32,000 nt of DNA from Candidatus Saccharimonadota bacterium (GCA_027925225.1 AP027131.1:300001-332000), one strand, 5' to 3'; shown: positions 4,771-30,661, counted from the first letter of the stretch. The notes: generated by a model from the sequence alone, not told the origin. Numbers and translations: made by a program.

Positions 4771-4778
4771 TGAAAATT

Positions 4779-8209: not shown

Positions 8210-8257
8210 TATTTCTTATTTATAAAATTATAAATAAGAAATAATTATATATACATG

Positions 8258-8638
8258 TTATTTTTTATCTGAAACTAGTTTATTTAAAATAATTTTTATA
8301 TCACCAATGTCTTTTTGCACTAAATCAAATTTGTTATCCATTTTTACTTCAATTTTTAAAACTCTATTTTCTAAAGAAATAAATTTATTATCAATATTCA
8401 TAAGTTTATTATCAATGTTTAAAAATTTGTTATCTATATCTTTAAAGTTTTTTTCAAAAGCAATAAGCTTATTATCTATATTTAAAAATTTATTGTCTAT
8501 ATCCTTAAAGTTTTTTTCAAAAGCAATAAGCTTATTATCTATATTTAAAAATTTATTATCTATGTTTATAAATTTATCATTTATTCATTTATGGTTTTTT
8601 TCTGATTTTCTAAAAATATTAAGATTTACTAAGTTCAT
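8258..8638 (-). CDS. Small heptad-repeat coiled-coil protein (126 aa)
   Basis: Translated codon by codon: MNLVNLNIFRKSEKNHKW then (IDNKFLN IDNKLIA FEKNFKD) repeated, ending ...DIGDIKIILNKLVSDKK*. It contains one TGA. The plus-strand track ORF 8307-8762 is its low-complexity antisense shadow. Confidence 0.5.
8380..8580 (-). repeat. In-frame 63-bp (21-aa, three heptads) tandem repeat, about 3 copies
   Basis: Unit starts at 8431, 8494 and 8557, an exact 63-bp spacing, and the units are near-identical. Confidence 0.8.
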
Positions 8639-9157: not shown

Positions 9158-10475
9158 TTTTTAAATGTTCTAAATCTTTTCTTACATTCTCTTTGTCTTT
9201 AAGTTTTTTCATCGCTTTAGATTCAATTTGTCTAATTCTTTCTCTAGTTACATTAAATCTTTGTCCAATTTCTTCTAGAGAATATCTTTGTTTAATTTCA
9301 TTTGAACCTTCTTCAAGCCCATTTCTTAATCTTATAATATCTACTTCTCTTTTATTTAAATATTTTGGTAAAATTTCATTTATTTTAGAAATAATTTCTT
9401 TGTTGGTTGCATATTTATCGGGAGATATTGTTTGTTTATCTTCTACAAAATCATAAAGAAATGATTCGTTATCAGAACTTATTGTTTTATCAAGTGAGGA
9501 AGGATCGATATTTATAAGTCTTATTTGATTTATTTTACTTTCAGTAATATCTCCTCCCATTTCTTTTGCAATTTCAGCATCGGTTGGTCTTCTTCCGAGT
9601 TCTTGCATTAATTCTCTTGTTATTTTTGAAAGTTTATTAATAGTTTCAACCATATGAACAGGAATACGAACAGTACGAGCTTGATCTGCTATTGCTCTTG
9701 TTATCGCTTGTCTAATTCATCAAGTTGCATAAGTTGATATTTTATATCCTTTTTTATAATCAAATTTATTAATTGCTCTTATAAGTCCATTATTTCCTTC
9801 AGAAATTAAATCTGAAAAAGGGAGTCCTCTACCTTTATATTTTTTTGCTATATTTATTACAAGTCTTAAATTATGATTAATAAGAATTTCTTTTGCAATT
9901 CTAGCTCTATCTTTTTGTGCTCAAGTTGAATCTAACTGAATTCCTGCTTCGATTTGCTTTGCAAGCTCTATTTCTTTTTCTGCAGTAAGAAGAACACCAT
10001 ATTTTCCAACTCATTGCATATATCACTTAATATGATCATCGGTATCTATTAATTCATTATCAATAACAGTATCATCAATATCTTGATAATACTCAAGGTC
10101 ATTTTTTACTTCGCTCTCAGCATTTGCTGTAATTTCTTCACTTGATTTTTCTAAATTTTCTTCTTCTGTTGAATTTTTGTCTTCTTCAAATGTATAAGAT
10201 GTATTTGTTTCTTCTTCAATTTTAACATCATTAAGATCAACCATTTTTTGTTCTTGTTTTTGGTCTTCTTGAATAATTCTTTCAGCAATAAGAAGATCGA
10301 AGAAATTTTCAGTTTCATCATCATTTGTCATTATAAGATTATGATTATCTAGAAATTTAAAAACTTCTTCCTCAGTAAAATATTCTTTTTTGCTCTTTTT
10401 TAATTCACCTTTTAAAATCTTAATTACAGTCTCATATTCATTTAAATATATTTTTTTCTTATCATTTTTTGCCAT
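9150..10475 (-). CDS. rpoD: Primary RNA polymerase sigma factor (sigma-70/SigA), 441 aa
   Basis: Fragments 10023-10475 and 9150-9653 are in frame (1326 nt). The intervening part encodes [69 protein letters not shown], with WW encoded by TGA TGA. Region 4 is [24 protein letters not shown]. Confidence 0.95.
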
Positions 10476-10480: not shown

Positions 10481-12247
10481 TTATTTATTCACCTTACTTG
10501 TTAATCATTTCAAATCATCATAATTAAAATCATCTTCATTACGAATTTGCTCTCTTAATTTTAGATTGTTATATTCTTTGACTAAAAAATTTATTTTATC
10601 TTTCCTATTGTTTAACTCTTCTTTCATATATTCATCATTTTTATTTGCATTTTTATTGATTTTAACATCTATAATTTCCTCATAAAGCAATAATTCTTTT
10701 TCAGTAAAATTTTCTTTTAGTCTATTAAAATCCAAATTTTCATTATTAAATTTTAGGATATCAATAATTTTATTATATAACCTTGTTATTTTTTTTGTAA
10801 AGAAGATATTATTTTCTTTTAGTAGATCTTTTTTTTCTAAGATTAAAGCAAAGACAAAAATCTCTTGCTCCATTATTCTATATGATATTTGCTCGATTTT
10901 GAAATAATTATTGTTTTTTATATTTACATTTTTATTTGATTTAACATTTTTGTGATTTATAATATTTTCTTTATTTTCATCTACAAGTATTTTCACATAA
11001 TCAAATATTGTCTGTTGTTTAATAAAATTAAGATATTTTTCTCTATTAATCCCATCTTTTTCTAATTTAATAATTTTAAATAAATTTAAAATATCTTCCT
11101 TTTTTGTATTTTTTTTCGAAAGTGTTTTATTAATAAGAAATTCAATAAAATCTATTGGATTTTCTATTTCTTTTTTTATATTTTCTTTATTTTCTAAATT
11201 TAAAAATTCATCAAAATCTTTCCCTTTTTTTATTTGAATTATTTTTACAATAAAACCTTCATTTATTAATTGTTTTCCTACTTTTTCTGTTGTGTTTATC
11301 CCGGGTTCATCAACATCAAAACAGAGATTAATTTCTTTTGCTAAACTTTTTAAATATTCAAGATGATATTTAGAAAAATTAGTTCCCATTGTTGCTATTA
11401 CATTTTCATATTCTAATTTATCAAATGCAATAGCATCCATAAATCCTTCTACAATAATAGCTTTTCTTTTTAATTTAATTTTGTTTTCAGCATTATTTAC
11501 ATTGTAAAGTGTTTTTTGTTTATTAAAAACTTTTGTTTCTTCTGAATTTAAATATTTTGAATATGTATTTTCCTTTCCTATTATTCTTCCTGAAAAGGCT
11601 ATTATTTCATTGTTTATGTTAAAAATGGGAAAAATAATTCTGTCTTTAAAAAAATCATATACTTTTGTTTCTGATGTTCTTACTAATTTAGATTTAATAA
11701 TTTCCTCTTCTTTAAAACCTTTTTTAAGTAAAAAATTAAAAAGAGAATTATTTCCTTCTGTAAAACCAATTTTAAATTTTGTAATTATTTTTTCATTAAT
11801 TTTTCTTTTGTTTAAATATTCTTTTATTTCATTCTTATTTTTTTCATTTAACTTGTTTTCTAAATTAAATTTAAAAAAATTGCTTGCTTCTAAATTTATT
11901 TTTTTTAATAATTCTTTTTCGGGATCAATAAAAACTTTTCTTTCATTTATGTATATTTTTCAATCGATTCCTGATAATGTTGATATTTTTTTAATTGAAT
12001 CTATAAAACTTAAATTTTCATAATTTTGTACAAATTTTATAGTTCCTCCACCTGCATTACATGAAAAACATTTAAAAATTTTTTTATTAGGAGAAACAAT
12101 AAGTGATGGATTTGAATCACTATGAAATGGACAAAGTCCAACATAATTGTTTCCTTTTTTTTCTAAATGAATATAGCTTGAAATTATATTTTCAATCTTA
12201 ACTTTGTTATCGATTAAGTCTATTAATTCACTTAAATTATTTTGCAT
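10481..12247 (-). CDS. dnaG: DNA primase, 588 aa
   Basis: Zn-finger CPFHSDSNPSLIVSPNKKIFKCFSC and TOPRIM EGFMDAIA are present. I translated 11441-11959 and found it open, with TGA only. The TGA at 10505 is read through to TAA 10481-10483. Confidence 0.9.
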
Positions 12248-13847
12248 TTTGCTTAATGTATTTTCTTAAATCTCCAAATTTTATTCTTTCCTGCTTTTTA
12301 TTGTCTCAATGTCTAATTGTAAAGGTTTTATCATCTTTATATTGTTTATCTATCGTAATAACAAAAGGTGTACCAATTGCATCTTGTCTAAAATATCTTT
12401 TCCCAATGCTTCCACTTGTTTGAAAAATTATTGCACCAAAATCTCTTTTTGCTATCTTATTAAATATTGCTTTTGCATCTTTTTCTTCATTTTTTGTAAG
12501 TGGACATATTGCAATTTTATATGGAGCAAGAGAAAAAGGAAAATAAATTTTGTTTTTATCTTTATTATAATTCTCTATTAAAATTGCAAAAAGTAAACGT
12601 TCAACCCCCATAGATGTTTCAATAATATTTGGAATTATTCTTTTATTTTCTTCGGTACAATGAAAATTTGTTTTTGAAAAATGTTCATGATTTTTTAAAT
12701 CAAAATCGCCTCGATCTGCAATTCCTAAAATTTCTCCAAAACCAAAAGGGAAATTATAATTTATATCAACCGTTTTTTTTGAATAATGTGCAAGATCAGA
12801 TTTTTTTACATTTTCATATTTAAGATTTTCTTCATTTAATTTAAGTTCTTTTGTTAAAAAAAGCTTTACTTTTTTTAGTGTTTTATTGAATTCTTTTGTA
12901 TTTGTTTTTGGTAAAATAAATGATTCCAGCTCTAATTGCTCAAACTCTCTTGTTTTAAAGATAAAATTCCCAGGAGTTACTTCATTTCTAAAAGATTTAC
13001 CAATTTGGCCAATTGAAAAAGGAAGTTTTAAATGTAAAGTGTCTTTTAAGTTTTTAAAATTTATAAATATTCCTTGTGCTGTCTCTGGTCTTAAATAAAG
13101 TTCTTTATTTCTTTCTGTTTTTGAATTAATTATTTTAAACATTAAGTTAAATATTTTTATTTCACTTCATCTAGTTTCAGATTTATATTTTATTTTTTCC
13201 ATAGCTTCAGACTCAATTTGAAATATTTCTTCTGCGCTTATATTAAATATTTGGCTAATTTCTTCTGAAGAATATTTTTTACCAATTTTATTAGAATTTT
13301 CTTCAATTCCGTTTATAAGTCTTATAATAGATTCTTCTCTTTTATTTAAATATTTTGGTAAAAATTCATTTATTTTAGAAATAATTTTTTTATTTTTATC
13401 ATTTTCTTTATTTGAAGTGTTTTTATTTTTTTCTAAAAAATCATAAATAAATGATTCTGGTAATTTTATTTCTTTTTTTATTAGTTCTTCTATTTCTTTT
13501 AAAGAGAGATCGCTTATATTTTTTTTTAGATATTCTTTTAATAATTTTTCAACATTATATCTAACATTATCATTTAAGCGTTCAATCATATAATCATTAA
13601 ATTTATTTAAATGTCCAGAAGCCTCTCATACTTTATTATTCAATATAATAGATGAATCAAATAAAAATGATTTTTCATTATTGATTACAAAATAATTTTT
13701 TCAAAGAGATTTTAAATTATCTTTAAGCAATGTTCCAATTGGTCCATAGTCGAAAGAATTAGCAAGTCCACCATAAATTTCTGAACTTGGATAAATAAAT
13801 CCATTTTCTTTTAAATGAGAAATTAATAATTGTATTTCTTTTTGCAT
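12237..13847 (-). CDS. glyQS: Glycyl-tRNA synthetase (class II, alpha2 type), 536 aa, with a sigma-derived insert
   Basis: The N-terminus was translated from 13847: MQKEIQLLISHLKENGFIYPSSEIYGGLANSFDYGPIG...VWEASGHLNKFNDYMIE. The core is FNLMFK...YLRPETAQGIFINFKN...GQIGKSFRNEVTPGNFIFKTREFEQLE...GSIGKRYFRQDAIGTPF. Track ORFs 13167-13589 and 12306-13142 are in the same frame. The TGA at 12306 is read through to TAA 12237-12239, overlapping the dnaG start by 11 nt. Confidence 0.9.
13194..13459 (-). repeat. ~265-bp segment homologous to rpoD 9205-9468 (sigma regions 3.2-4.2), embedded in frame inside glyS
   Basis: Direct nucleotide alignment shows long identical runs, for example tcttttatttaaatattttggtaaaa and ttcatttattttagaaataattt. 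The peptide is [22 protein letters not shown]...EEISQIFNISAEEIFQIESEAMEKIK, against Rpo[23 protein letters not shown]...[26 protein letters not shown]. Confidence 0.85.
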
Positions 13848-13897
13848 ATCTACTTTATTTTAATACTTAAGAAGATTAAAATGAATAATAATGTTTT

Positions 13898-16312
13898 TTA
13901 ATTTAATTTATAATTATTTATCCTAAAATTTAAAAATTTTTTTCTTTCATTATTTAAAACATTGTCATAAATTAAATCTATTTTTTTATTTTTTACAAGC
14001 TCATCAAATTCTTCTTGTAATAATGAAATATTTATTATATCTCCATTTTCATTAATAGCTATTTTGCCTTTATCTCATAGAGAGTGAACATTGCAATCTA
14101 ATAATAAGTAATTATTATTAGAAAAAAAATAATTTAAATTTTCATCTAAATATTTTTCATCAGTGTTCATTAAAATTTTTAAAAATTCTTTATTTTCAAT
14201 AATATGAGCTCTTTCAAAATTAGAAAAACTATTAACAAAATCTTTTGTATATTTTTTATTTTTTCTATCATTCTCTATTATTTTTGATCATATATATCTT
14301 AAATCAGTTTTATTAATTTTTTCTTTTTCTGTTTTTATTTTTTTAATAATTTTTTCTTTTTCATTAAAAATGAATTTATCAGGTACTATTAATAAATCTA
14401 AAAATTTGTTATTTTTAAAAATTTCATAATTTTGTGATGCAAATGCATTTTTTATTTCTCTTCATTCTTTCTCTTCTTTTTTATTGATTTTATATTTTTT
14501 TTTAATTTTCATTTTATTTTCTTTTAATAAACATAAAATATTTTCCTCTTTTATGTCATTTATTAAATTTGTATTAAAAATATTATTATTATTTTTATTT
14601 TTTGAATTTGAAATTAATGAAAAAAATTTAAATTCATAATTATTATTTATTCCATCTTGTTCATAAATTTTTTGTAATTCCTTAATTTCAATGCTATTCA
14701 AAATTAATCTTATTGGATCACTGTTTGGATTTGATAATCCGCCAGAAGAATGTGATCCAGTTATAAATGCATCAACATCTTTTATTGTCAATTTAAAATC
14801 AATAATATTTTTATTTAACTCCTCTATATTTCCCTTAAATTTAACTTCTTCTTTTTTCATATTTTTATTATTTGTTTTATCAAAGTTTTTATTTCTATAT
14901 TTTAATAATTTTAAATATTTTGGTTTTTTTAAAAAAAAATGTTCACCATATCTATTAGAAGAAGAACCTATTATTTGTTTTTCATCATTTAAAAGCATAG
15001 TATTAAAAACCAAACTGTGATCACTTTTTTTAAATATCATTATTCCTTTACCTGAATAAAAATATTTTGATTTTTCTTTGCTTTTTAAATTAACAATAAT
15101 TTTAAAATATTCTTCCTTTTTCATTTTATTTTCCCTTTTATTTTTGAAAGCACATCTAAAAATTTCTTCTAACACTGGTACAACAATTGAATTTCCGGCT
15201 TGTTTTCTTAAAAAATTTTCTGAAATTAAATTTTCATTGTTTATTTTATCAAAATCTTGTTTTTTAAATCCCATTATTTTTCATAATTCAGAAGCACTTA
15301 AAATTCTTATTACATTTAATTTTTTATCAAAAATTTTTATTCTATTTAATGCGCCAGTTGCAGTTATTGTTGGAGATATAGATTTGCTGGCATTAAAAAC
15401 CATATTCTCAGATTGAAAATTTGAATAATTTTTTAAAATTATTTTTTGTATTCCGTTAAAATGATTTTTAAAAGAATTTTCATCTATTTTTTCATTTATT
15501 TTAATTTCTTTTTTATAATTATTAGTATCTTTTTTATCAAAAAAATTGCTAATTCTTAATTTTGTTAAATTAATTTCTTTTGGAAAAATAAATTTATTTT
15601 GTTCAAATTCAGAAAACATAAAAGCTCTTTCTCTATTTTGAGGTATATTAAAATATTTGGCATTTAATGTAAACTTATGATTAACATATCCTAATTTTTC
15701 TAAAAATAATTCTCATTTTTTAAAATTTTTTTTATTTTTTTCAGAGAATATTGCTTTTACATTTTCCATCAATAAAAATTTAGGTAATTTATTTAATTTA
15801 TTTAATTCATCTAAAATTCTTTTAACTTCTCATAATAGAGAAGAACTACTCCCATAAACTAATCCTTTTTGCAATCCTTGTAAAGATAAATCTTGACAAG
15901 GAAAAGAATAAGTCATTAAATCATGTTTGGGAATATTTTCTCCTTTTAAATCTTTTATACTTCCAATATTATTTGTTATATTTAATGATTTTTCTAATAG
16001 TCATAAAAATTTTATTGATAATGATCTTAAATTGGTATATTTGTTTTTTCCATCTTTTGATAAATTATAATTTTCAAGTTTTTTTAATATTTCTTTTTTT
16101 AATATTTCCTTTTCTGTATTTGAAGCTGAATTTAAAATTTTGTCAATTTTTTTTCTTTCATTTTTAATTATTATATTTTCATGAACAAACGCATAAGAAA
16201 TAACAGAATAAATATCTCAATCACAACATAAAACAACTTCAAATTTTAATCCTATATTTTTAAATGCTTTAGCTTGTGCTCCAATACCAGAGAATAATTC
16301 AACTATTTTCAT
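13898..16312 (-). CDS. C5-cytosine DNA methyltransferase fused in one ORF to a C-terminal HNH-type nuclease domain (804 aa)
   Basis: I translated the whole ORF 16312 to 13898 and found only TGA inside. MTase motifs: I ELFSGIGA, IV SFPCQDLS, VI ENV, VIII QNRER, X QAGNSIVVPV. There is no stop after motif X. An unassigned region of about 210 aa follows, then ERAHIIENKEF...NNNYLLLDCNVHSLWDKGKIAINENG, which fits the AHI...N..L....H..fD.G.i pattern of HNH_2-type restriction nucleases. Confidence 0.8.
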
Positions 16313-16645
16313 TTATAAAATAATACCATTTAATATGCTACAATAAGGCATTGAAACACAAAACAATATCTAATTTTTTTTGTGCTTAAAAATAATCTTG
16401 TTATCCTACTATGATTAAAAAAATTGATTTTTAATTATCATATATTAAAAGAAAATTTCTTTCTTTAAAAATTATCTCTCTCAATAATTATTTTTTTTCT
16501 TAAATTAAATTAAGTATCTTTTTCTAATATTTTATTATTTTTTATATTTTTATTTATTTTTAATAATTTGTTATTTATTCTTAAACTTTTATTTGTAACA
16601 CTACTATAATTTTTAATCTTGATTTTTAACATTAATAATAAAAAA

Positions 16646-17000
16646 ATGACTATTCAATAATTTTTTTAATAATTTTCTGATATTATATCTAACATTATCA
16701 TTTAAATGCTCAATTATATAATCATTAAATTTATTTAAATATTCCAAAGTATCTCATAATTTATATATTTAATATAATATATAAATCAAATAAAAATTAT
16801 TTTTTCATCATTTATTACAAAATTATTTTTTTTAAATAAATTTTAAATTATTTTTAAGTATTATTATTATTTTACAATAGTAAAAAGAATTAGTTATATC
16901 ACTACAAATTTTTGAATTTTGATAAATAAATTCACTTTTTTTAAATAAGAAATTAATAATTTTATTTCTTTTTACATATCTATTTTATTTTAATGTTTGA
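16646..17000 (-). pseudogene. Decayed copy (relic 2) of the glyS 5' end and its upstream region
   Basis: Aligns by eye to 13540-13870, with shared strings such as atatctaacattatcatttaa..caat.atataatcattaaatttatttaaat and gaaattaataatt.tatttcttttt.catatcta. The ATG is retained at 16975-16977, but codon 2 is CAA>TAA and there are many further lesions. Confidence 0.75.
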
Positions 17001-17151
17001 AAAAATAAATTAATATAAAATATTTTAGGTTCTAAATAAAATTGCTAATTAATATAATTTTTTAATATTTTTTTTATTTTTAAAATTGTTTTGTTAAGTT
17101 ATATACAAAAAATATTCCATACTTACAATATATATTGTATATTTAATTTAT

Positions 17152-17571
17152 ATGAAATATGTTATTTTGATTGCAAATAGTGAAAAATATGATCATTACA
17201 AATGATTAAGAAAAGAAAAAAAGATAATATGATCTTTTTCAAAATATTTTCATATTCAAAATGATGATATAGTATTGTTATATTCTACTAAAAACAAAGA
17301 AATAAAATTTTTGTTAAATTCTGAATTAATTTTAAAAAATTCAAATAAAAATGAAATTTTAGAAAAAATGGGAGAAAAAGAATTATCAAAATATAAAAAT
17401 AAAAATTTTGAAAATAAAACTTCTTTATTTAATATGAAATTAATTAAAGAATTAGATTTACCTATAAAATTGAATGAAATAAGAAATAAAAAAATACCAG
17501 AGGTTCTATTCTATATTGAAGAAGAAAGAGATTCAGATTTATTTAAAAAAATTACAGATTTAATTTTATAA
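17152..17571 (+). CDS. Hypothetical 139-aa protein, possibly PUA/EVE-like
   Basis: ATG 17152 is in frame with track ORF 17275-17571 through two TGA codons. The N-terminus MKYVILIANSEKYDHYKWLRKEKKIIWSFSKYFHIQNDDIVLLYST loosely fits the EVE pattern (Y.l....p.kY..W...W......i..gD.vl.Y.s). The assignment is weak. Confidence 0.4.
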
Positions 17572-17725
17572 AAATTAAAAAGATTTTTAGACAAAAAAAT
17601 ATATTAAAAATATAAATATAATTCCTTTTAGAGATATAAAAAATAGGAAAATAAATAAATAAAAATTTATACATCATATTTAATAGTTGCTCTAACACCA
17701 TTAATTGTTAAAATTAATATATCTA

Positions 17726-19532
17726 ATGAAAAAAGAAAATATCAGAAACTTTTCAATTATTGCTCATATTGATCATGGTAAATCTACGCTTGCAGATCGT
17801 ATATTAGAATATACTGGTTCTATTTCAAAAAGAGAAATGAAGGCACAAATCTTAGATACTATGGATCTTGAGAGAGAACGTGGTATTACTATAAAATTAA
17901 ATGCTGTTCAAATTTCTTATAAATATAATAATGAAGAATATATTTTAAATTTAATTGATACTCCTGGACATGTTGATTTTACATATGAAGTATCCCGCTC
18001 ATTAGCTGCAAGCGATGGAGTATTACTCTTAGTAGATGCAACACAAGGCGTTCAACCACAAACAATAGCAAATATGTATCTTGCGCTTGAAAATAATCTT
18101 GTTATCTTACCTGTAATTAATAAAATTGATTCTGAATTAGCAGATATTAAAAAAGCAGAAAAAGAAATAAAAGAAATTTTAGGTCTTGAAATAAATGACA
18201 TAGTCTATATTTCTGCTAAAACTGGGAAAAATATTGACAAAGTATTAAAGCTTATAATTGAAAAAATTCCTGCTCCTCAAGATGCAGATGACAAAAAACC
18301 TCTTAAAGCACTTGTATTTGATTCTTATTTTGATTCTTTTAGAGGAATTATTGTATTTATAAGATTATTGCAAGGAAGAATAAAAAAAGGAGATAAATTA
18401 AAATTTTTACAAAATAAGCATCAATTTGAAGTTATTTCAGTAGGTGTAAATACACCTTTTGAAACAGAAAAAGATCATCTTGAAGCAGGGGAAACGGGCT
18501 GAATAGTAACTAATGAAAAAGATATTCATTCTTTTCATGTGGGAGATACTTTAACTTATGAAAATGAAAATAGTATAACTCCTATACAAGGATATAAATC
18601 ATCAAAACCTATGGTTTTTTCTGGTTTTTATCCAATAGATACAAATAAATATTTACTATTAGAAGAAGCATTGGGAAAAATTTCTCTTTCAGATTCTTCA
18701 CTTACTTATGAAAAAGAAAGTTCTAAAGCATTAGGATTTGGCTTCAGAATTGGCTTTTTAGGATTATTGCATCTTGAAATTATTCAAGAAAGAATTGAAA
18801 GAGAATTTAAAATAGATATTATTTCTACTGCACCTTCTGTTATTTATAATGTTTATTTAAAAGATAAAAAAGAACCATTAGTAATTAGAAATCCTTCAGA
18901 TTTTCCTGATAAAGTAAATATAAATTATGTAAAAGAACCTTATGTTAAACTATCTCTTTTTTCCCCACAAGTTTATGTGGGGAAATTAATGGAATATATT
19001 CATAGAAAAAGAGGTAATTATATTGATTTAGAGATATTTTCTGAAAAAATGAATGCTTTAATTTATGAAATTCCACTTGCTGAAATTGTATTTGGTTTTT
19101 TTGATTCTATTAAATCTATATCAAAAGGTTATGCTTCTTTTGATTATCAAGAAATAGGATATAAAAAATCAAATTTAGCAAAACTTTGAAGTTTTAATAG
19201 CAGGAGAAAAAATAGATGCTCTTTCTTTAATTGTAGAAAAAGATAATGCTTATTATATTGGAAGAGATCTTACTCAAAAATTAAAAGAAACACTTGTAAG
19301 ACAGAATTTTGAGGTTGCAATTCAAGCAAGCTTAAATGGAAAAATTATTGCAAGAGAAACATTAAAAGCATATAGAAAAGATGTAACTGGTTATCTTTAT
19401 GGTGGAGATGTTTCAAGAAAGAAAAAGCTTTTAGAAAAACAGAAAAAAGGGAAAAATAAAATGAAGCAAATTGGTAAAATATCTATTCCTCAAGAAGCTT
19501 TTATTTCTATTTTAAAAAATAATAATAAATAA
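17726..19532 (+). pseudogene. lepA: lepA (EF4) copy 1, conserved motifs intact but frameshifted by one extra T at 19185-19187
   Basis: G-domain motifs [22 protein letters not shown] and NKID are present. The length is 1807 nt, one more than copy 2. Here the sequence is aaactttgaag, against aaacttgaag in copy 2. The original frame ends at TAA 19244-19246, and the last ~114 codons ([12 protein letters not shown]...[14 protein letters not shown]) lie in the +1 frame. Confidence 0.7.
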
Positions 19533-19566
19533 AAAAAATACACATTTAAAAATGTGTATTTTTTAA
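19533..19566. terminator. Bidirectional rho-independent terminator between convergent lepA-1 and the fibre-gene relic
   Basis: A perfect 11-bp palindromic stem (aatacacattt / aaatgtgtatt, 19537-19560) is flanked by an A-run on the left and a T-run on the right. Confidence 0.75.
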
Positions 19567-19584
19567 AATAGTATTATTTTATAT

Positions 19585-20343
19585 TTATGCTGTTCTTTTG
19601 AAAACTCTCATTCCTGTTCCAACTCCTAAATCATAAGCTTTATTTTTATCTTTGCTACCAGTTAATGAAGTTCATGCTGTTTGACAATTATCAGCACTTT
19701 CACTAGGAACTGTATTTCCTATTATTTTTGAATTTCCTCCTTGATCATATGTATTAAATTTATTTATACTATTACCAAATCCTGTTACTACATCTGCAGC
19801 AAAATTTGTTATTCTTGCTGATCATTGGTGATTATGAGAAATTATATTTCCATTATTTGAACTGCATCCAATTATAGCTTGCCCTTCTGATAATATTCCT
19901 AAACTTTCTCAAAATCCATATCTTGGTGGCATTAGAGAAATAATAATTGATCCAATTGGTAATTTTAAATTTTCCATTTGATTTTTTAATTCTAAAATTT
20001 CATTTTGATTATTAATAATTTGATTTAATGATTGATTTATACCTTCTGTTGGATTCATAGTACTATCATCTGCCAATTCTGAAGATAAAGAAATTCCTTC
20101 TTCAAATTCTGGTCATTGATTAATTGTTTCTCCATTTAAAGTAAGTTGAGGATAGTTATATATACCATTTTCTATTTCAATTAAATCTGCACTATTTTGA
20201 TTAACAATTTTATTTGTTTCATTTAAATTTGCTTGATCTGCTTTTAATGAAATATCTCCTGTATTTTTATCAATTTGTGTTTTTCAAGGATTTATTCCAA
20301 AAGTTGGATTTGAAGTACTATTATTTGCTAATTTTAAAGTCTT
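19585..20343 (-). pseudogene. 5'-truncated fibre-family paralog (A'), 252 codons: one GINPW repeat, coiled coil and C-terminal domain
   Basis: The frame is open from 20343 to TAA 19585-19587 and is preceded by an in-frame TAA at 20344-20346. There is no plausible start or N-terminal part. It abuts glyS relic 3. The sequence is collinear with the 3' third of gene 25768-27813. Confidence 0.7.
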
Positions 20344-20354
20344 TTATTAATAAT

Positions 20355-20760
20355 GTGAAAATGATTATTCAATTATTTTTTAATAATTTTTTAACATTAT
20401 ATCTAATATTTAAATATCCAGAAGCCTCTCATACTTTATTATTTAATATAATAGATGAATCAAATAAAAATGATTTTTCATTATTGATTACAAAATAATT
20501 TTTTCAAAGAGATTTTAAATTATCTTTAAGAAACGGTTCAGTTAGACCATAGTAAAAAAAAAAAATTAGTAAGACCACCATAAATTTCTTAGCTTGAATA
20601 AATAAATTCATTTTTATTTTAAATAAAAAAATAATAATTGTATTTCTTTTTGAATATCTGCTTTATTTTAATAATCAAGAAAATTAAAATGAATAACAAT
20701 TTTTTTTAATTTAAATATAATTTTTTTTCATTATTTAAAGAATTATTATAAATAATGAAA
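20355..20760 (-). pseudogene. Decayed copy (relic 3) of the glyS 5' end, followed by a ~60-bp relic of the 3' end of the C5-MTase/HNH gene
   Basis: Long stretches are identical to 13600-13760, for example ccagaagcctctcatactttattatt.aatataatagatgaatcaaataaaaatgatttttcattattgattacaaaataattttttcaaagagattttaaattatctttaag. The start codon is destroyed (cat>aat at 20653-20655) and there is a ~42-bp deletion. The match continues through attaaaatgaataa.aat...ttttttc..cattatttaaa (13880-13960). Confidence 0.8.
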
Positions 20761-20763
20761 TAT

Positions 20764-23247
20764 TTACTTATTTAATAATTCATAATTTTGTTTAATATTT
20801 TCATAAAATGTTTTCATTTCTTTACTTCAAATTTTTAATTTTTCTTTATTTTTAGGTATTGGAATTAAAAAATCATAAAAATTTATAGAAATAGTAGGTA
20901 TTGTACCTTGAATAAAAATTGCACTTCTAACTTGTTCTTTAAATATCTTTGAAGTTGCAAATATTTTGCTTAATGAATAATTATCTAAATTTAAAACATT
21001 TCTTTTATTTACTTTTATTATATATAAATGAGATTGTATAACTGATTTAATGTCATTTTTATCTAAAATAGCAAATTGACCAACTCTACTTTTTCCATCT
21101 TTTACAAAAATAATATCTCCTTCTTCTAACTTTTGTTTATTTTTAAATTTTGATTCAAAATATTCTTTTGTAATATATCATTGTTTATTTAAATTTATTT
21201 TATAATCTTGAATATCAGAAGTTCTTATAAAAGGAATATAATCTTTTTCATTTAATTCTTCCTCAATATCATCCAAACTAAAATAACCACTACTTTCTGG
21301 CCCATTGCCAACAGGTATTAATTTTTTTTTGTTAGAATATAACACATCAATTTCAATTAATTCTTTAATTGTATAAAAATCATATATATTCTTAAATTCT
21401 TTTTTCATTTTATTTTGATAACTTCTATATTTTATATAAAAGTTTGTGTATAAAGAAAGATTATTTTCATTATATATGTCTAACATTTTAATTTTAAAAA
21501 TTTGTGAATTTTCTTTTTTATTTTTAAAGTCTTGGTATAAATTTTCAAAATCACTTTTTATTATTTTCTCTTTTTTTTCATTTTGTAATATATTTTGCAT
21601 CAAATCTTTTTCATATTTAATTTTCCCATTTTTATCATGACCCACCTCAAATACATTAAAAAGAAAAACATTTTTATTAGAAAACTTAGAAATTATTTCT
21701 TCTTTTGTTAAATTATTTTCAAATTTTCTTAAAATAAGAACTGATGTCTTAATACCTGTATGAGGTTTAAATGTTTCGGTTGGTAAGTTTATTATTTTTT
21801 CTACATAACATTTAGAAAGAATAAATTGTCTAAGTGAAAGTAATGTTGGATTTCCAAATATTCCTTCAGGTAAAATTATTGCTAATTGTCCACCTACTTT
21901 TAAAAAATTAATACATTGTTCAATAAAAAGGTATTCTGGATTAACTGCTTTTTCAATTTTGCCATTTTTCTTTGCTACTTCATAATTTTTCAAAATTTCA
22001 TAATCTTCTACTTGAATTTTTTTTCCAAAAGGAGGATTTGTAATAATTAAATCAAAATCTTTTTTAATAGTTTTTTTACTAACTTTTTCACTTGATAAAG
22101 AATCAACATCAAAAATATTAGTAACACCATCACCCATGATAGACATATATGCTTTTGATATTTTTGCAACTGTTTTATTTAAATCAAAACCATAAATATT
22201 TTTACTAGCTATTTTTTGTTTTAAATTTTCCTTTTCTTCTCTTGAAATTTTTTTTAATTCAATAATCTCTCAAATATTTTTTAAATACTCAACAATAAAA
22301 CCACCAGTACCACAAGCAGGATCTAATATTTTTTTGTTTTCATCAATATTTAAAAAATTAAGAATAAATTTTACTACATTTCTAGGGGTAAAAAATTGAC
22401 CATGATCTCCTTTAAGGGTTTTAGAAATAATAGTTTCAAATGCATCTGTAATAACATCACTGGAAGAAGTCATAAAACTAACTTTTTGAAGATTTTCAAT
22501 TATATAACTAATTATTTCTTCGCTAAATTCAATTGTTTCATCTTCTTCAAAATTATCAGCATAACTTTTTTTGACATTATTAAATATTTTAATTAATTGA
22601 TTCTTATTGGGTTCTGAATCATTTATATTACTTTCTTTTCAAACAAATTCTAAATTATCTTCATCTTCCTTATATCTTTCATCATAAATTTTGCAAAAAA
22701 GCACTCTAATTAAGTTATCTACAATCATTCCATCACTTTCCGCGGTGCTTGCTTTTATATAAGAATGAATTTCTTGAAAAGTTTTTTTTAAATTTTCAAA
22801 AGACTTTAAATCTTTTTTTTTAAAATTATCTATAACATTATTAAAATTAGGAATATTATTTATACTAATATAATTCAAAGAATCAGTTTTTTTATCTACA
22901 ACTTTTTTTAAAAATATTTTTTTCACCCCATTAAATAAAACACCATAATGAGCATCGCAAAGTCCCAAATATTTTTTTAATTGATTTATACCATCTTTTC
23001 TGTTATTTCTTTTACATTCAACAATAATATGTAAATTATTATTTTTATCAAAAACAGCAATATCAATCAGATATTTTTCTAAACTTCCAGGAGATTTTGG
23101 AATTCTATATTGTGGATGAGTAGTAATATTATTCTTGGGATATCCGTAAATTTTAAAAAGTTCTTCTGAAAAGGGTTGAATTGATTCTACTTCTTCGGGA
23201 GTGGCATTAATTTTCTTTGTTGTTATATAATCTGTTATTTGTTTCAT
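20764..23247 (-). CDS. Single-chain type IIG-like restriction-modification enzyme: N-terminal PD-(D/E)xK nuclease, gamma-class N6-adenine MTase and one HsdS-like target-recognition domain (827 aa)
   Basis: Fragments 22639-23247, 22270-22473 and 21178-22146 plus the tail to TAA 20764-20766 are in one frame, and I translated the gaps. Nuclease motif: LIDIAVFD...HIIVECK. MTase motifs: GQFFTPRNVV, DPACGTGGF (I), NPPFG (IV). The C-terminus (LEEGDIIFVKDGKSRVGQFAIL...IPIPKNKEKLKI) resembles an HsdS half-subunit. Confidence 0.8.
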
Positions 23248-23333
23248 TTTATTTTTTCCTTTATTATTTTTAATAATTAGTATTTTAAATAAATTATTTT
23301 TTTTCTATATTTATATTTAAACACAAAAAATTT

Positions 23334-23430
23334 AAATTTTTAATCCTATACTTTTAAATTTTTTAGATTTTTCTTTAATACTAAAAAATAATTTAAATAT
23401 TTTCATTTATAAAATAATATCATTTAAGAT
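23334..23430 (-). pseudogene. Relic of the first ~24 codons and 5' leader of the C5-methyltransferase gene
   Basis: 23334-23360 matches 16241-16265 (aaattttaatcctata.ttttaaat) and 23398-23430 matches 16304-16336 (attttcatttataaaataata.catttaa). The stretch between them has the same length and is collinear, but most G/C positions are replaced by A/T. Confidence 0.65.
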
Positions 23431-23508
23431 ATATATAAATATTAATTTAAAAACTAAAATTAAAATATTATTTTTTTTTAAAAAAGTACTTTTTTATAAC
23501 ATTTATTT

Positions 23509-23805
23509 ATGCAATATAAAAGACAGAAAATTATTATTTTTATATTATTGATATTTTTTTTAATATTTTTATCACTGTTTTTTTTGAGTGTAAATAAAGA
23601 TAAAAACAAAAATAAAAAAGAAAATTTTAAAAATAATACAGTATATTTTCATAATTTTGCATTACAAAATAAAGATAGTTTTTATAAAAGTGATACATTA
23701 TTCCTTCTTGATTATTATTGTGATGATTTAAAGTTTAATGAAATAACATGAAAAACTAATAATAAATATTTTAAAAATGTTTATTTAATGAAAAAGATTT
23801 TATAA
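23509..23805 (+). CDS. Hypothetical small protein (98 aa) with an N-terminal hydrophobic helix
   Basis: Track ORF 23509-23751 extends through TGA to TAA 23803-23805. The N-terminus MQYKRQKIIIFILLIFFLIFLSLFFLSV is TM- or signal-like. It has no recognisable homology and could be spurious. Confidence 0.3.
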
Positions 23806-23910
23806 TCTCAAACATGAATTCACTAATTATTAAAAAAAGCAAATAAAAAATTTAAACATTATGTTTTAATAAATATTTAATAATTAATATTATTAAAATT
23901 AATATATCTA

Positions 23911-25716
23911 ATGAAAAAAGAAAATATAAGAAATTTTTCAATTATTGCTCATATAGACCATGGGAAATCTACACTTTCAGATCGAATATTAGAATATACT
24001 GGTTCTATTTCAAAAAAAGAAATGAAGTCGCAAATCTTAGATAATATGGATCTTGAAAGAGAACTAGGAATTACTATAAAATTAAATGCTGTGCAAATTT
24101 CTTATAAATATAATAATGAAGAATATATTTTAAATTTAATTGATACTTCTGGACATTTTGATTTTACATATGAAGTATTTCGTTCATTGGCTGCAAGTGA
24201 TGGAGTATTGCTTTTAATTGATGCAACACAAGGTGTTCAACCAAAAACAATAGCAAATATGTATCTTGCACTTGAAAATAATCTTGTTATCTTACCTGTA
24301 ATTAATAAAATTGATTCTGAATTAGCAAATATTAAAAAATCAGAAAAAGAAATAAAAGAAATTTTAGGTCTTGAAATAAATGACATAGTCTATATTTCTG
24401 CTAAAACTGGGAAAAATATTGACCAAGTATTAAAGCTTATAATTGAAAAAATTCCTGCTCCTCAAGATGCAGATGACAAAAAACCTCTTAAAGCACTTGT
24501 ATTTGATTCTTATTTTGATTCTTTTAGAGGAATTATTGTATTTATAAGATTATTGCAAGGAAGAATAAAAAAAGGAGATAAATTAAAATTTTTACAAAAT
24601 AAGCATCAATTTGAAGTTATTTCAGTAGGTGTAAATACACCTTTTGAAAAAGAAAAAGATCATCTTGAAGCAGGAGAAACAGGCTGAATAGTAACTAATG
24701 AAAAAGATATTCATTCTTTTCATGTGGGAGATACCTTAACTTATGAAAATGAAAATAATATAACTCCTATACAAGGATATAAATCATCAAAACCTATGGT
24801 TTTTTCTGGTTTTTATCCAATAGATACAAATAAATATTTACTATTAGAAGAAGCATTGGGAAAAATTTCTCTTTCAGATTCTTCACTTACTTATGAAAAA
24901 GAAAGTTCTAAAGCATTAGGATTTGGCTTCAGAATTGGCTTTTTAGGATTATTGCATCTTGAAATTATTCAAGAAAGAATTGAAAGAGAATTTAAAATAG
25001 ATATTATTTCTACTGCTCCTTCTGTTATTTATAATGTTTATTTAAAAGATAAAAAAGAACCATTAATAATTAGAAATCCTTCAGATTTTCCTGATAAAGT
25101 AAATATAAATTATGTAAAAGAACCTTATGTTAAACTATCTCTTTTTTCCCCACAAGTTTATGTAGGGAAATTAATGGAATATATTCATAGAAAAAGAGGC
25201 AATTATATTGATTTAGAGATATTTTCTGAAAAAATGAATGCTTTAATTTATGAAATTCCACTTGCTGAAATTGTATTTGGTTTTTTTGATTCTATTAAAT
25301 CTATATCAAAAGGTTATGCTTCTTTTGATTATCAATAAATAGGATATAAAAAATCAAATTTAGCAAAACTTGAAGTTTTAATAGCAGGAGAAAAAATAGA
25401 TGCTCTTTCTTTAATTGTAGAAAAAGATAATGCTTATTATATTGGAAGAGATCTTACTCAAAAATTAAAAGAAACACTTGTAAGACAGAATTTTGAGGTT
25501 GCAATTCAAGCAAGTTTGAATGGAAAAATTATTGCAAGAGAAACATTAAAAGCATATAGAAAAGATGTAACTGGTTATCTTTATGGTGGAGATGTTTCAA
25601 GAAAGAAAAAACTTTTAGAAAAACAGAAAAAAGGGAAAAAGAAAATGAAGCAAATTGGTAAAATATCTATTCCTCAAGAAGCTTTTATTTCTATTTTAAA
25701 AAATAATAATAAATAA
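23911..25716 (+). pseudogene. lepA: lepA (EF4) copy 2, with an in-frame TAA at 25336-25338 and substitutions at invariant GTPase residues
   Basis: All 1806 nt are in one frame. GAA>TAA relative to copy 1 (FDYQ*IGYKK). Substitutions: RGITI>[13 protein letters not shown]>[12 protein letters not shown]>QPKT. The 3' two-thirds are almost identical to copy 1. Confidence 0.75.
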
Positions 25717-25749
25717 AAAAATACACATTTAAAAATGTGTATTTTTTAA
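25717..25749. terminator. Second copy of the bidirectional terminator (atacacattt aaaa atgtgtat + T-run)
   Basis: The same palindrome as at 19537-19560, located between lepA-2 and the convergent fibre gene. Confidence 0.75.
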
Positions 25750-25767
25750 AATATTATTATTTTATAT

Positions 25768-27813
25768 TTATGCTGTTCTTCTAAAAATTCTCATTCCTGT
25801 TCCAATTCCTAAACCATAAGCTTTATTTTTGCTTTCTGCTCCAGTTAATGAAGTTCACCCTGTTTGAGTTGAATCATTATTATCAAGAAGAACTTTAGAT
25901 CCTATTGATTTTGCATTTCCTGTTTGATCATATGTATTAAATCTATTAATACTATTACCTATACCAATTACTAAACCTGCAGTAAAACTTGTTACTCCTG
26001 CTGATCATTGGTGATTGTGAGAAATTATACTTCCGTTACTTGAACTACCGCCAATTATAGCTTGCCCATCTTCTAGTGTTCCTAGAACCGTTCAAACTCC
26101 ATAACTTGGTGGAAGTACAGAAATAATAATTGTTCCAATTGGTGATTTTAAATCTTCCATTTTATTTTCTAAATCTAATATTTTATTTTGATTATTAATA
26201 ATTTGATTTAATAATGAATTTATACCTAAATTTGGATTTGTATTACTGTCATCTGTTATCATTGAAGATAAAGAAATCCCTGCTTCAGATCACTTCGTAA
26301 TTTCTTCCCCGTTTAGAGTAATCTTTGGATAATTATATGCTCCCTGTTCTATTATTGAAATATCTGTTGTATTTTTATCAATTTCAAATAGCATAGGATT
26401 TATACCTAAACTTGGATTTATATTACTATCATTTGTTAATTCTGAAGATTTTGAAATTCCTTCATCTGGTCATTTTGTAATTTCTTCCCCATTTAAAGTA
26501 AGTTTTGAATAATTATATGTTCCACTTTCTATTTTATCTAAATCAACTTGATTCGCTTTTAATAAAATATTTGAAGCATTTTTATCAATTTGAGTTTTTC
26601 AAGGATTTATTCCAAATGTTGGGTTTGAAGTACTATCATCTTCTGTTGAAGAAGATACAGAATTTGTTAAAATTGTTCCATCTATTATTTTTGATATATC
26701 TTCTGTATTTTCATCAATTTGAGTTTTTCAAGGATTTATTCCTTGTGTTGGATTTGTGACACTATCATCTGTTAATTCTGAAGATTTTGAAATTCCTTCT
26801 TCAAATTCTGGTCATTGATTTATTGTTTTTCCATTTAAAGTAAGTTGAGGATAATTATATGCTCCCTGTTCTATTATTGAAATATCTGTTGTATTTTTAT
26901 CAATTTCAAATAGCATAGGATTTATACCTAAACTTGGATTTATATTACTATCATTTGTTAATTCTGAAGATACTGTAGCACCACTCTCAGGTCACTCTGT
27001 AATTGTTTCATCATTTAAAGTAATTTTTGAAAATTCATATTTCCCACTTCTCATTCCAAAAATATCATTTTTATTTGAATCAATTTGAGTTTTTCAAGGA
27101 TTTATTCCTTGTGTTGGATTTGTGACACTATCATCTGTTAATTCTGAAGATAGTGTAGCACCACCTTCGGGTCACTCTATAATTGTTTCATTATTTAAAG
27201 TAATTCTTGAAAAATTATATTCCCCACTTCCCATTCTAAAAATATTATCTTTATTTGAATCAATTTGAGTTTTTCAAGGATTAATTCCTACAATGGGTTT
27301 TTCAGTACTATCATCTTCTAATTCTGAAGTTTTTGAAATTCCTTCACTTGAAATATCAGATCATTTTGTAATTGTTTCTCCATTTAAATTAATTGCTAAA
27401 AAGTTAGTTTTTCCAGTTTGTAATGAAACAAAATCATTTCTAAGAATATCAATACTTCTTTTTCAAGGATTTATACCAGAATTTATATTAGTTTTACTAT
27501 CATCTGTTAACTCTGAAGTTAAAGAAACCCCTTCAGAAGGTCACTCTGTAATTGTTTCTCCATTTAGAATTAGTTTGGGAAAATTGGCATTTCCTTCTGC
27601 AACTGTTTCTAAACCATTAAAAATTTGATCAATTGCATATTTTCAAGAATTTATTCCCTCAAGTGGTTTTAAATTACTATCATTTTGAATTTCACTTGAT
27701 AGAATTTCCTCTGTAGCTTTTAAAGATTTTAATTCTCTTTTTAAATTATTTTTATTAAAAATATTGTTTGATTTTAATATAGGTTTATTATTTATTTTTT
27801 TATTATTTTCCAT
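25768..27813 (-). CDS. Fibre-family protein B (681 aa): short N-terminus, 8 GINPW repeats, coiled coil and a tail-collar-like C-terminal domain
   Basis: ATG 27813 is preceded by GAGGTGAAATAA. The 2046 nt are in frame to TAA 25768-25770. I verified the 5' 70 codons by coordinate and read the rest by eye. TGA occurs twice per repeat (INPW, E/K-W-P), which explains why no ORF appears in the track. The C-terminus is LKSPIGTIIISVLPPSYGVWTVLGTLEDGQAIIGGSSSNGSIISHNHQWSAG...AYGLGIGTGMRIFRRTA. Confidence 0.8.
26225..27690 (-). repeat. Coding tandem repeats of 129-190 bp (43-63 aa units, each ending ...SELTDDS....NP..GINPW)
   Basis: The tttttcaagga landmark (the INPWK codons on the opposite strand) recurs near 26598, 26727, 27090, 27271, 27460 and 27640. 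INPM variants lie near 26395 and 26917. An exact 121-bp duplicate sits at 26328-26448 and 26850-26970. Confidence 0.85.
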
Positions 27814-27950
27814 TTATTTCACCTCATTTAAATAATACATTTTAAATTTTTAAAAAAAAGAATTACAATTTTTTTAATAATTTTAAATTGTTTTTTATTT
27901 TATTAAAAATTTTTAATTTAATAACTATTTTAAAAAATATTAATTAAAAT

Positions 27951-29354
27951 CTATTTTTCTCTTCTAAAAATTCTCATTCCTGTTCCGATTCCTAAACCGT
28001 AAGCTTTATTTTTGTTTTCTGATCCAGTTAATGAAGTTCATCCTGTTTGAGTTTTATCATTATTATCAATAAGAACATTAGAACCTATAGATTTTGAATT
28101 TCCTGTTTGGTCATATGTATTAAATTTGTTAATACTATTACCAATTCCAATTACTAAACCTGCAGTAAAAGTTGTTACTCCTGCTGATCATTGATGATTG
28201 TGAGAAATTATACTTCCATCACTTGAATTACCACCAATTATAGTTTGCCCGTCTTCTAATGTCCCTAGAACCGATCAAACTCCATAATTTGGCGGAAGTA
28301 CAGAAATAATAATTGATCCAATTGGTGATTTTAAATCTTCCAGTTGATTTTTTAATTCTAAAATTTCATTTTTATTTGAATCAATTTGAGTTTTTCAAGG
28401 ATTTATTCCTTGTGTTGGATTTGTTACACTATTATCTGTTAACTCTGAAGTTAAAGAAACCCCTTCACTTGAAATATCAGATCATTTTGTAATTGTTTCT
28501 CCATTTAAATTAATTGCTAAAAAGTTAGTTTTTGCAGTTTGTAATGAAACAAAATCATTTCTGAGAATATCAATACTTCTTTTTCAAGGATTTATACCAG
28601 AATTTATATTAGTTTTACTATCATCTGTTAACTCTGATGTTAAAGAAACCCCTTCAGAAGGTCACTCTGTAATTGTTTCTCCATTTAAATTTATTCCTGT
28701 AAAAGGAATTTCGCCAAATGCCAACTCATTAACACTAGATATAATTAAATCAATATTACCTTTTCAAGGATTTATTCCATAATCTGGATTTTTACCACTA
28801 TCATCTGTTATTAATGAAGAATAGATATCTTCTTCAGCATTTATTGATGATTCTATTTTTTTATTTAAAACATTTTCTAAAGAAAATTTAATTTCATAAT
28901 TAATACTATTTAAAATTAATCTTCCTTTTTTTTCTTTTATAGAACAATCAAAATAAATAATATCTCCTTTTTTAACTTCTAAATCAGTTAAAAGTAAAAC
29001 ATTATTATTAATTCTTTTTTCTATAGGATATTCTATTGTTTTTTTTAATCTATTATTTAGATAAAGATTAAATTCTAAAGTTTTTTTAGATATGTCACTT
29101 AAAATAGATTTTACATAAAATTTAAATGTAAATTTACCACATTTAAGTGCATTAAATTTATTTGGATTAATTTGTTCTTTAACAAAATTTTCATTTAAAG
29201 AATTTATTTTAATTAAATTTGGTCTTATTTTTTCGCTATTTATAACTTCTAATGATGGAGAGTGATATTTTCCCATCATCAAATCTTTTTTATTACAAAT
29301 GTTGTTTGATTTTAATTTAGATTCATTCTTTGTTTGTTTAACAATTATTTTCAT
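27951..29354 (-). CDS. Fibre-family protein C (467 aa): ~170-aa N-terminal domain, 2 GINPW repeats, coiled coil and C-terminal domain
   Basis: Track ORF 28764-29354 is in frame (813 nt) with TAG 27951-27953 through TGA codons. The ATG is preceded by the same GAGGTGAAATAA as gene B. The C-terminus is SPIGSIIISVLPPNYGVWSVLGTLEDGQTIIGGNSSDGSIISHNHQWSAG...AYGLGIGTGMRIFRREK. Confidence 0.8.
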
Positions 29355-29586
29355 TTATTTCACCTCAAACAAATAGTAATGCTTAAATTAAATATATTTA
29401 CATAATTTTTAAAAAATATATTTATTTTATTTTTAAAAAATAAATATATAAAATATGCATCTTTTATTTGTTTTTTAATTATTTTTTTATATTTTTAAAT
29501 AAGTAAAAATTTAAAACCATTACTTATTTTTTAAGAATTTTATAATTTTCCTGAATTAGTAATAAATTTTTACTTTTAAATTAATT

Positions 29587-30606: not shown

Positions 30607-30661
30607 GATTTTCCTTTCATCAATATTTATTTATTAAAGATAAATAACTTTTAATTATTTT

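Follow-up and report, generated by a model that had tools for sequence, protein, structure and literature searches.

Head-to-tail units of glyS, cargo, lepA and fibre-gene segments in a Hepatoplasma-like genome: probable remnant of a tandem amplification

Restriction–modification (R-M) genes have been described to insert with long target duplication, to replace one another by allelic substitution and to be amplified when flanked by direct repeats (Furuta 2010, PMC2853133). In 'Ca. Endomicrobium trichonymphae', R-M remnants lie at sites of rearrangement, including the duplication of a region (Zheng et al. 2016, PMC4760077). Here we describe a locus related to these systems in a 32,000-nt stretch of DNA (AP027131.1, 300001-332000; hereafter the window, with positions counted from its first letter). 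Self-BLAST and alignments reveal three collinear head-to-tail units, each of which extends from the 5′ end of glyS with its upstream region through a cargo slot and lepA into the 3′ part of a repeat-rich "fibre" gene; we number the units U1, U2 and U3 in head-to-tail order from the glyS end. We put at about 0.85 the probability that one chromosomal segment of ~6.3 kb was amplified in tandem here and that the locus is what erosion has left of it.

The array shares with tandem segmental duplication and amplification by unequal recombination its head-to-tail units, one novel join at every boundary, a left-end gene that is intact in its first copy and a right-end gene that is intact in its last, decaying redundant copies and conversion tracts. 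It differs from such arrays in its setting, a reduced genome of ~660 kb of which it makes up about 2%, and in that the units have since gained different cargo. As in Endomicrobium, the organism is host-associated with a small genome, and R-M genes occur at an insertion with duplication of flanking genes and no transposon structure. The Endomicrobium cases are mostly R-M pseudogenes with a simple single duplication, whereas here two R-M-type genes are intact, the duplication is three-fold and the junction has been re-used.

The array is a well-preserved instance of an already known rearrangement type. Its significance lies in being an unusually legible natural record of the interplay between R-M genes, local duplication, cassette replacement and gene conversion, in a ~660-kb genome where redundant DNA is expected to be purged fast. 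It provides a natural example of the amplification of R-M genes between long direct repeats, hitherto shown mainly in the laboratory, and of an allelic R-M substitution in which the displaced gene has left both its stubs behind. Further value comes from side observations, namely a sigma-factor domain in GlyRS, a doubly disrupted lepA and a stop-free truncated fibre copy.

Collinear units and a recurring junction

The window has a G+C content of ~20%, and its genes are intact solely under genetic code 4 (TGA = Trp), in which all open reading frame (ORF) work was carried out. LepA comparison places it in the Hepatoplasmataceae, as a Hepatoplasma-like mollicute. Among the LepA sequences of other genomes, the nearest show identities of 77% (a Logan assembly, L002, hereafter the nearest relative, which served as outgroup for the glyS 5′ comparison), 74% and ~70% ('Ca. 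Hepatoplasma crinochetorum').

The repeated part of glyS consists of the 5′ ~317 nt and a 50-nt upstream region, giving a repeat of ~366-370 bp. The functional U1 copy (13531-13897, minus strand) has two degraded counterparts on the same strand, at 16659-17026 in U2 and at 20374-20706 in U3. Self-BLAST pairs U1 with U2 (13532-13897 and 16660-17026, 81%, E 2e-91), U1 with U3 (13604-13941 and 20407-20747, 87%, E 9e-115) and U2 with U3 (16732-17043 and 20407-20722, 77%). A second, longer repeat comprises lepA, its terminator and the fibre 3′ end, with 17648-20176 matching 23832-26353 at 92.5% over 2535 nt (E 0). At present the units measure 3.1, 3.7 and ~6.3 kb.

Both inter-unit boundaries carry the same junction, at which a fibre repeat meets glyS codon ~105 in the form AAATGA[C/T]TATTCAAT. 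This motif occurs at 16644 and 20359 and nowhere else in the window on either strand. At the first boundary, J1, it ends a fibre-repeat relic (16485-16658, minus strand; 64% to 20202-20373, E 1e-15) as AAATGACTATTCAAT at 16644-16658; at the second, J2, it reads AAATGATTATTCAAT at 20359-20373. The 15-nt string is part of the fibre-repeat side and not of glyS. Homology to glyS begins at 13531, about 16659 and about 20374 in the three units, which corresponds to GlyRS codon ~105. In the multiple alignment the fibre-repeat and glyS flanks of J1 and J2 are both collinear, and a self-BLAST match between 16573-16692 and 20290-20406 (75%) spans the position of the proposed fusion. The repeat unit has its left breakpoint inside glyS at about 13531 and its right one inside the intact fibre gene fibA at about 26640-26655. 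An in-frame GlyRS′-fibre fusion protein at the junction was considered and finds no support, as the relic and fibre frames differ even when the relic indels are removed.

The two glyS relics share seven derived substitutions, all within 13743-13817, at which functional glyS retains the outgroup state. Because of these shared changes, U2 and U3 appear to go back to a single founding relic that was later copied together with its junction. Collinear head-to-tail copies and an identical novel join at every unit boundary are what defines a tandem duplication array; the single-copy arrangement in a relative is likewise found, in the nearest relative, albeit without a fibre gene at the locus.

These comparisons bear out most of what an earlier note, made by a model from the sequence alone, had proposed: three copies of the glyS 5′ end, two of lepA with its terminator and the fibre 3′ end, a third glyS copy fused to a truncated fibre copy (at J2), and a head-to-tail duplication with end points in glyS and the fibre gene whose junction string was itself re-duplicated. 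The self-comparison that the note had suggested as a check yields three glyS-like segments that are collinear and share the junction.

We give almost no credence to the view that the assembler multiplied or wrongly joined a single unit. The genome is represented by only one assembly in the collections searched, and the probable source, that of Ca. Hepatoplasma vulgare Av-JP, was built from Oxford Nanopore (ONT) reads with Flye at 15x, polished with Medaka and POLCA using 38x Illumina data and patched by hand elsewhere, all of which would leave room for an artefact. Artefactual copies, however, would be near-identical, and those observed differ by 8-23% outside the conversion tracts described below, with relics only 77-87% identical and with differing deletions, cargo genes and lesions in each copy. 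It is this old divergence, together with the unit-specific deletions, cargo and lesions, that speaks against an assembly error; if the source is correctly identified, the architecture moreover comes from long reads.

Ancestral arrangement and cargo slots

In the nearest relative, the genes efp, three deoxynucleoside kinase (dNK) genes, a DEAD helicase gene, NIF3, trmK, rpoD, dnaG and glyS follow one another in the same upstream synteny as in the window. A spacer of 85 bp separates its glyS, encoding 453 aa, from its one lepA, which is divergent and encodes 601 aa, with hrcA-grpE-dnaK beyond. Since glyS and lepA are adjacent in this synteny, the spacer between them is the site of all of the events recorded in the window. 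The same locus of the relative contains no R-M gene, and tblastn found no fibre homologue there; two more distant relatives carry lepA in other contexts. The earlier note had looked to related strains for an unduplicated order of glyS, R-M gene, lepA and fibre gene, of which the unduplicated glyS and lepA are found and the other two are not.

In 'Ca. Hepatoplasma crinochetorum', lepA is followed directly by a GmrSD-family type IV restriction gene (11840-13708 in L004, strain Av; 7455-9323 in L005). The lepA flank thus holds restriction genes in a second species, in which the surrounding gene order differs.

The cargo of U1 is RM1 (13898-16312, minus strand), an intact single ORF of 804 aa that fuses a C5-cytosine methyltransferase with a putative endonuclease of the MAG4270 family/HNH type. 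It matches Pfam DNA_methylase (5e-45) and HNH_2 (4e-06) as well as the NCBIfam models dcm and MAG4270_fam, and the methyltransferase motifs FxGxG, PCQ, ENV, QNRER and GNS are all present. U3 instead contains RM2 (20764-23247, minus strand), an intact N6-adenine methyltransferase of 827 aa with an N-terminal, PD-ExK-like HSDR_N_2 domain (Pfam HSDR_N_2 1e-13, N6_Mtase 2e-39) and the motifs D62..E77xK79, DPACGTG and NPPF. In NCBIfam, RM2 is MADS2-like at 337 bits, under the cut-off; the top PADLOC models are Type II and Type I methyltransferases, with REase_MTase_IIG at merely 1.7e-25. The C-terminal 220 aa have no family match, and this long extension may be a target-recognition domain. RM2 is a plausible candidate for a type IIG-like R-M enzyme made of a single polypeptide.

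RM2 is unrelated to RM1, from which it differs in Pfam architecture, and yet it is enclosed by the two ends of an RM1 copy. On one side lies an RM1 3′-end stub (20708-20753, minus strand; 83% to 13927-13972, IIYNNSLNNEKKLYLN vs LIYDNVLNNERKKFLN) and on the other an RM1 5′-end stub with RM1 upstream sequence (23307-23478, minus strand; 74.6%, E 8e-30, to the intact RM1 5′ end and upstream region at 16212-16381 on the same strand, MKIFKLFFSIKEKSKKFKSIGLKI* vs MKIVELFSGIGAQAKAFKNIGLKF). The presence of these stubs implies that U3 once carried RM1 and, therefore, that RM1 predates the duplication. By sequence comparison, the original cargo of the unit is RM1, and because RM1 stubs flank RM2, the latter is best read as having replaced the RM1 body rather than having entered an empty site. 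As both end stubs survive, the break points of the replacement lie inside the old gene. This agrees with allelic R-M substitution as described in PMC2853133, in that an unrelated gene occupies RM1's exact position between homologous flanks; it differs from that class in that the alleles sit in paralogous units of one genome instead of in different strains, and in that both stubs of the displaced gene persist.

If RM1 and RM2 had each entered the glyS–lepA spacer independently, and each had duplicated ~370 bp of the glyS 5′ end on insertion, R-M-type genes between direct repeats would also result. The locus indeed shows most of the features given for long target duplication in PMC2853133: RM1 is an M-R fusion, the insert is smaller than 20 kb, the direct repeat (~366 bp) exceeds 30 bp and the repeated sequence is single-copy in the nearest relative. 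In further agreement with that class, no transposase or integrase is present, and the copy number exceeds two. The remaining feature, that only incoming DNA lies between the repeats, is absent. RM1 is separated from the next repeat by fragments of lepA and of a fibre gene, and that repeat borders directly on fibre-derived sequence; because of these host gene fragments, the array falls outside the long-target-duplication class. Its repeats instead form the termini of a longer piece of host DNA that was duplicated with lepA and the fibre 3′ end inside it. Both repeats furthermore start at the same fibre-derived junction, and RM2 is flanked by RM1 stubs, all of which makes two independent insertions very improbable in comparison with the amplification of one segment.

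The slot of U2 (17027-17647, plus strand) consists of ~620 nt of unique sequence with an orphan ORF, orf139 (17152-17571), and no RM1 remnant was detected in it. The earlier note's R-M slot, found with R-M genes in U1 and U3, therefore holds only this orphan in U2. No relatives of orf139 other than itself were found among 5.8 billion proteins, nor any match to Pfam, NCBIfam, PHROG or PADLOC. When slot 2 and the remaining unique spacers were compared by tblastx, low-complexity noise alone was returned. A reading of orf139 as an EVE/PUA-like domain was dropped, as no family search supports it. A 26-nt exact inverted match links orf139 (17339-17364) with the sense strand of the fibre paralogue fibB (28356-28381, coding SNKNEILE); its chance expectation, roughly estimated with base composition allowed for, is about 1e-3. 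This hints that slot 2 was partly assembled from local fragments.

In the region of the RM1 5′ stub, 23282-23469 also shows weak direct similarity to 16-185 (68% over 193 nt, E 9e-07), which may reflect AT-rich background or a further fragment copy.

Decay, conversion and history of the copies

The intact glyS (12237-13847, minus strand) encodes a GlyRS of 536 aa under code 4, with Pfam tRNA-synt_2b and HGTP_anticodon domains and an end-to-end alignment with the 453-aa GlyRS of the nearest relative. Both relics have acquired stops and three to four frameshifts. The U2 relic still has its ATG, directly followed by a stop at codon 2, and carries four frameshifts; in U3 the start has changed from ATG to ATT, 39 nt are deleted and three frameshifts are present. 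Over 13531-13727, U3 (20374-20527) is 97-100% identical to U1, which indicates a later gene conversion tract from U1 into U3 and makes U1 and U3 the closest glyS pair overall. The tracts here and in lepA are visible in the alignments; we infer only the direction of conversion.

Within glyS, 13185-13451 (minus strand) is an in-frame insertion of 89 aa that copies RpoD residues ~340-432, that is, sigma-70 region 4. The source copy is the 3′ part of rpoD (9192-9467, 77% DNA identity), 3.7 kb away in the same operon, and within GlyRS the Pfam model Sigma70_r4 exceeds its cut-off. The insertion is missing from the GlyRS of the nearest relative. A sigma-factor domain inside an aminoacyl-tRNA synthetase is unusual. 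As the arginines of the recognition helix have been lost (TRERIRQ to SAEEIFQ), its DNA binding is probably gone.

Two copies of lepA are full-length, and each is interrupted once. The U2 copy, lepA2 (17726-19532, plus strand), would encode a complete EF4 bar one extra T in the run at 19185-19187, which puts the codons beyond 487 out of frame and ends the ORF at 19246. The U3 copy, lepA3 (23911-25716, plus strand), retains a full-length frame with a GAA-to-TAA nonsense change at 25336-25338 (codon 476). There are five lineage-specific amino-acid changes in lepA2, none of them in the G-domain motifs, which are canonical, and 10 derived changes in lepA3, including R52L in RERGITI and P80S/V83F in DTPGHVDF. 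The first ~400 nt of the two copies are 87-94% identical (synonymous divergence, dS, 0.33 over codons 1-125, with a nonsynonymous-to-synonymous ratio, omega, of 0.1). Over 18099-19598, identity rises to 97-100% (dS 0.031), and in the fibre part beyond it drops to 78-84%. By this pattern, the lepA 3′ region forms a second conversion tract of ~1.5 kb between U2 and U3. Each copy is followed by a hairpin terminator that separates the convergent lepA and fibre genes (19533-19562 and ~25717-25746), with RNA folds of -12.6 and -13.7 kcal/mol and a subsequent T run.

As assembled, neither lepA is intact and the organism is left with no intact EF4 gene, for which reason lepA is worth checking; none of the top LepA matches was a third copy from the same genome. 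Since the extra T falls within a tract of 99% identity in an assembly built on long reads, it could be an error. We lean towards it being real, given a distinguishing variant only 35 nt away and the intact frames of the other genes in the window. The two lesions are 35 nt apart in the alignment within the 99%-identical conversion tract, such that one conversion would restore an intact gene. That these complementary lesions serve as a recombinational on/off switch for EF4 is nevertheless hard to credit.

At the lepA2 site (19183-19188), the sequence CTT TGA A matches the slippery motif of the RF2 +1 site; were the ribosome to slip by +1, exactly the wild-type KLEV would be read. A programmed frameshift of the RF2 type was rejected, as no Shine–Dalgarno-like element lies upstream and UGA is an ordinary Trp codon; because of the latter, the likeness is probably a coincidence.

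The U1 copy of lepA is reduced to a degraded internal piece of 106 nt (16345-16450, plus strand; codons ~107-142, 80% to 18045-18152, E 7e-20) with three frameshifting indels, located between RM1 and the next glyS relic. Since fragments of both lepA and the fibre gene are retained, U1 seems to have lost most of this segment by deletion, as the earlier note had suggested from faint traces in 16370-16645. The fibre repeat among those traces is real (the relic ending in J1), the lepA trace is internal and not the gene start, and the supposed post-lepA spacer is indistinguishable from AT-rich background. In annotation, the locus is to be treated under code 4, with the glyS, lepA and RM1 fragments as pseudogenes.

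Taken together, these features suggest the following course of amplification. From the adjacent, divergent glyS and lepA ~85 bp apart that comparison shows, RM1 would have inserted into the spacer, with a cluster of fibre-family genes located downstream of lepA. One illegitimate recombination, to judge from the junction, would then have joined the repeat of the first fibre gene to glyS codon ~105, producing a direct duplication of glyS 5′ end, RM1, lepA and fibre 3′ part. Unequal homologous recombination between the two units would then have added the third, a step supported by the identical junction and the seven shared substitutions. The uneven decay of the redundant copies that followed can be read off the sequence itself: U1 kept glyS and RM1 and lost lepA and the fibre part through two deletions; U2 would have lost RM1; and in U3 the RM1 body was exchanged for RM2, leaving both stubs, with lepA3 gaining its nonsense codon and G-domain changes. 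Ongoing gene conversion homogenized parts of the array, glyS from U1 into U3 and the 3′ 1.5 kb of lepA between U2 and U3.

Several points weigh against this history. No genome with a single-unit stage of glyS, RM1, lepA and fibre gene was found, and as the nearest relative has neither the R-M gene nor the fibre genes, this stage is reconstructed rather than observed. Slot 2 has no significant match to RM1 DNA beyond low-complexity noise, and the former presence of RM1 in U2 is assumed. The pairwise identities of the glyS copies are not tree-like, with U1 and U3 closest, and therefore the model requires later gene conversion. The reliance on one assembly, mentioned above, counts here as well. 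R-M activity, finally, is no more than a possible cause of the duplication, beside ordinary recombination; that an R-M gene promoted the amplification could be argued by analogy only.

The truncated fibre copy and neighbouring features

The array as a whole has no dedicated function, and its net effect is two differing, apparently intact R-M-type genes plus an extra truncated fibre ORF. The latter, A′ (19585-20343, minus strand), is a 5′-truncated copy of 252 open codons, in which the first ATG, GTG or TTG is a TTG at 20076. Its intact counterpart fibA (25768-27813, minus strand) encodes a fibre-family protein of 681 aa with 6.4 copies of a 180-nt repeat. Compared with fibA, A′ lacks one repeat unit (about 46 codons).

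The open frame of A′ fits poorly with decay. In simulations, a stop-free frame of 252 codons had a probability of 0.0006-0.027, depending on the share of divergence assigned to the A′ lineage. The other relics have 11 frameshifting indels per 200 substitutions, which predicts three to six in A′ and gives its freedom from frameshifts a probability of 0.0015-0.039. The fibre 3′ part has a dS of 0.22-0.31. Simple decay leaves the openness of A′ without explanation, and A′ may be expressed or may be held open by conversion from intact paralogues.

One could accordingly ask whether the array is kept by selection, with U1 providing RM1, U2 providing lepA2 and a live A′ driven from the glyS upstream region, and U3 providing RM2 and fibA, or with A′ acting as a silent donor cassette. 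Consistent with this, A′ is free of stops and frameshifts where similarly diverged relics are full of both, retains the residues that are invariant in the family and has an omega of 0.5 in its upstream 80 codons. Gene conversion is active at the locus, and the glyS upstream hexamers TTCATT-17-TAAAAT are, on our reading of the alignment, kept in U1 and U3. On the other hand, omega against fibA is ~1.0 over the conserved C-terminal 165 codons, with 30 nonsynonymous vs 5 synonymous changes on the A′ lineage; no ATG, GTG or TTG lies near the start of the open frame; promoter-like matches in this AT-rich window are at chance level (a promoter/terminator scan gave 140 sites vs 135 expected); and the intact fibre genes share no visible conversion tract with A′, all being ~80% identical. 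We regard maintenance by selection as possible and on balance doubtful. Unlikelier still is the fuller proposal that the duplication was retained for a new gene, with A′ a live, fast-evolving paralogue through the captured glyS upstream region or a silent donor cassette, and with the units as parallel R-M landing pads. If true, such landing pads would let R-M cargo be swapped without a lethal loss of methylation.

The fibre family has at least four members in the window besides this copy, as four intact tandem paralogues occupy 25768-31678 (minus strand): fibA, fibB, fibC and fibD, of 681, 467, 339 and 338 aa. Each combines a coiled-coil neck with a conserved, beta-rich C-terminal domain of ~125 aa, with the consensus P.G.II...P.YG.WE.LG.L..GQ.IIGG.S..G.II.HNH.W...KN.AYGLG.G. 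An exhaustive HMMER search retrieved 36 representatives of this domain among 1.84 billion proteins, always at the extreme C-terminus. The family has no match in Pfam, NCBIfam or PHROG. In a comparison with phage tail-fibre and tail-collar-like proteins, its top match among PDB profiles is T4 gp11, weak at E 0.38. AlphaFold2 (AF2) models of the C-terminal domain reached a pLDDT of 40 from a single sequence and 63 from a 10-sequence alignment, and the top Foldseek match of the model is a 'Baseplate protein' (E 0.02, TM 0.25, likewise weak), with nothing significant against PDB and BFVD. On sequence and model features, 'fibre' is a reasonable label for the architecture and not a demonstrated homology.

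Across the window, Rfam and tRNA scans gave no matches, and a search of genome contigs with GlyRS returned only a remote Paceibacterota match. Upstream of the array, 3332-5483 contains three tandem deoxynucleoside-kinase-like paralogues that share 64-74% DNA identity over parts of their length. As the nearest relative likewise has three dNK genes, this tandem triplication in the neighbourhood of the array is an older and stable one. At 7388-8638 (minus strand), the NIF3-family gene and trmK are separated by two ORFs that are missing from the nearest relative. One, of 273 aa, has an N-terminal hydrophobic segment and a DLIID...IEIK motif that is PD-(D/E)XK-like in look; the other, of 126 aa, is built from NIDNKF(L/I) repeats, to which a direct repeat of 101 nt in the DNA corresponds (8349-8449 and 8475-8575).

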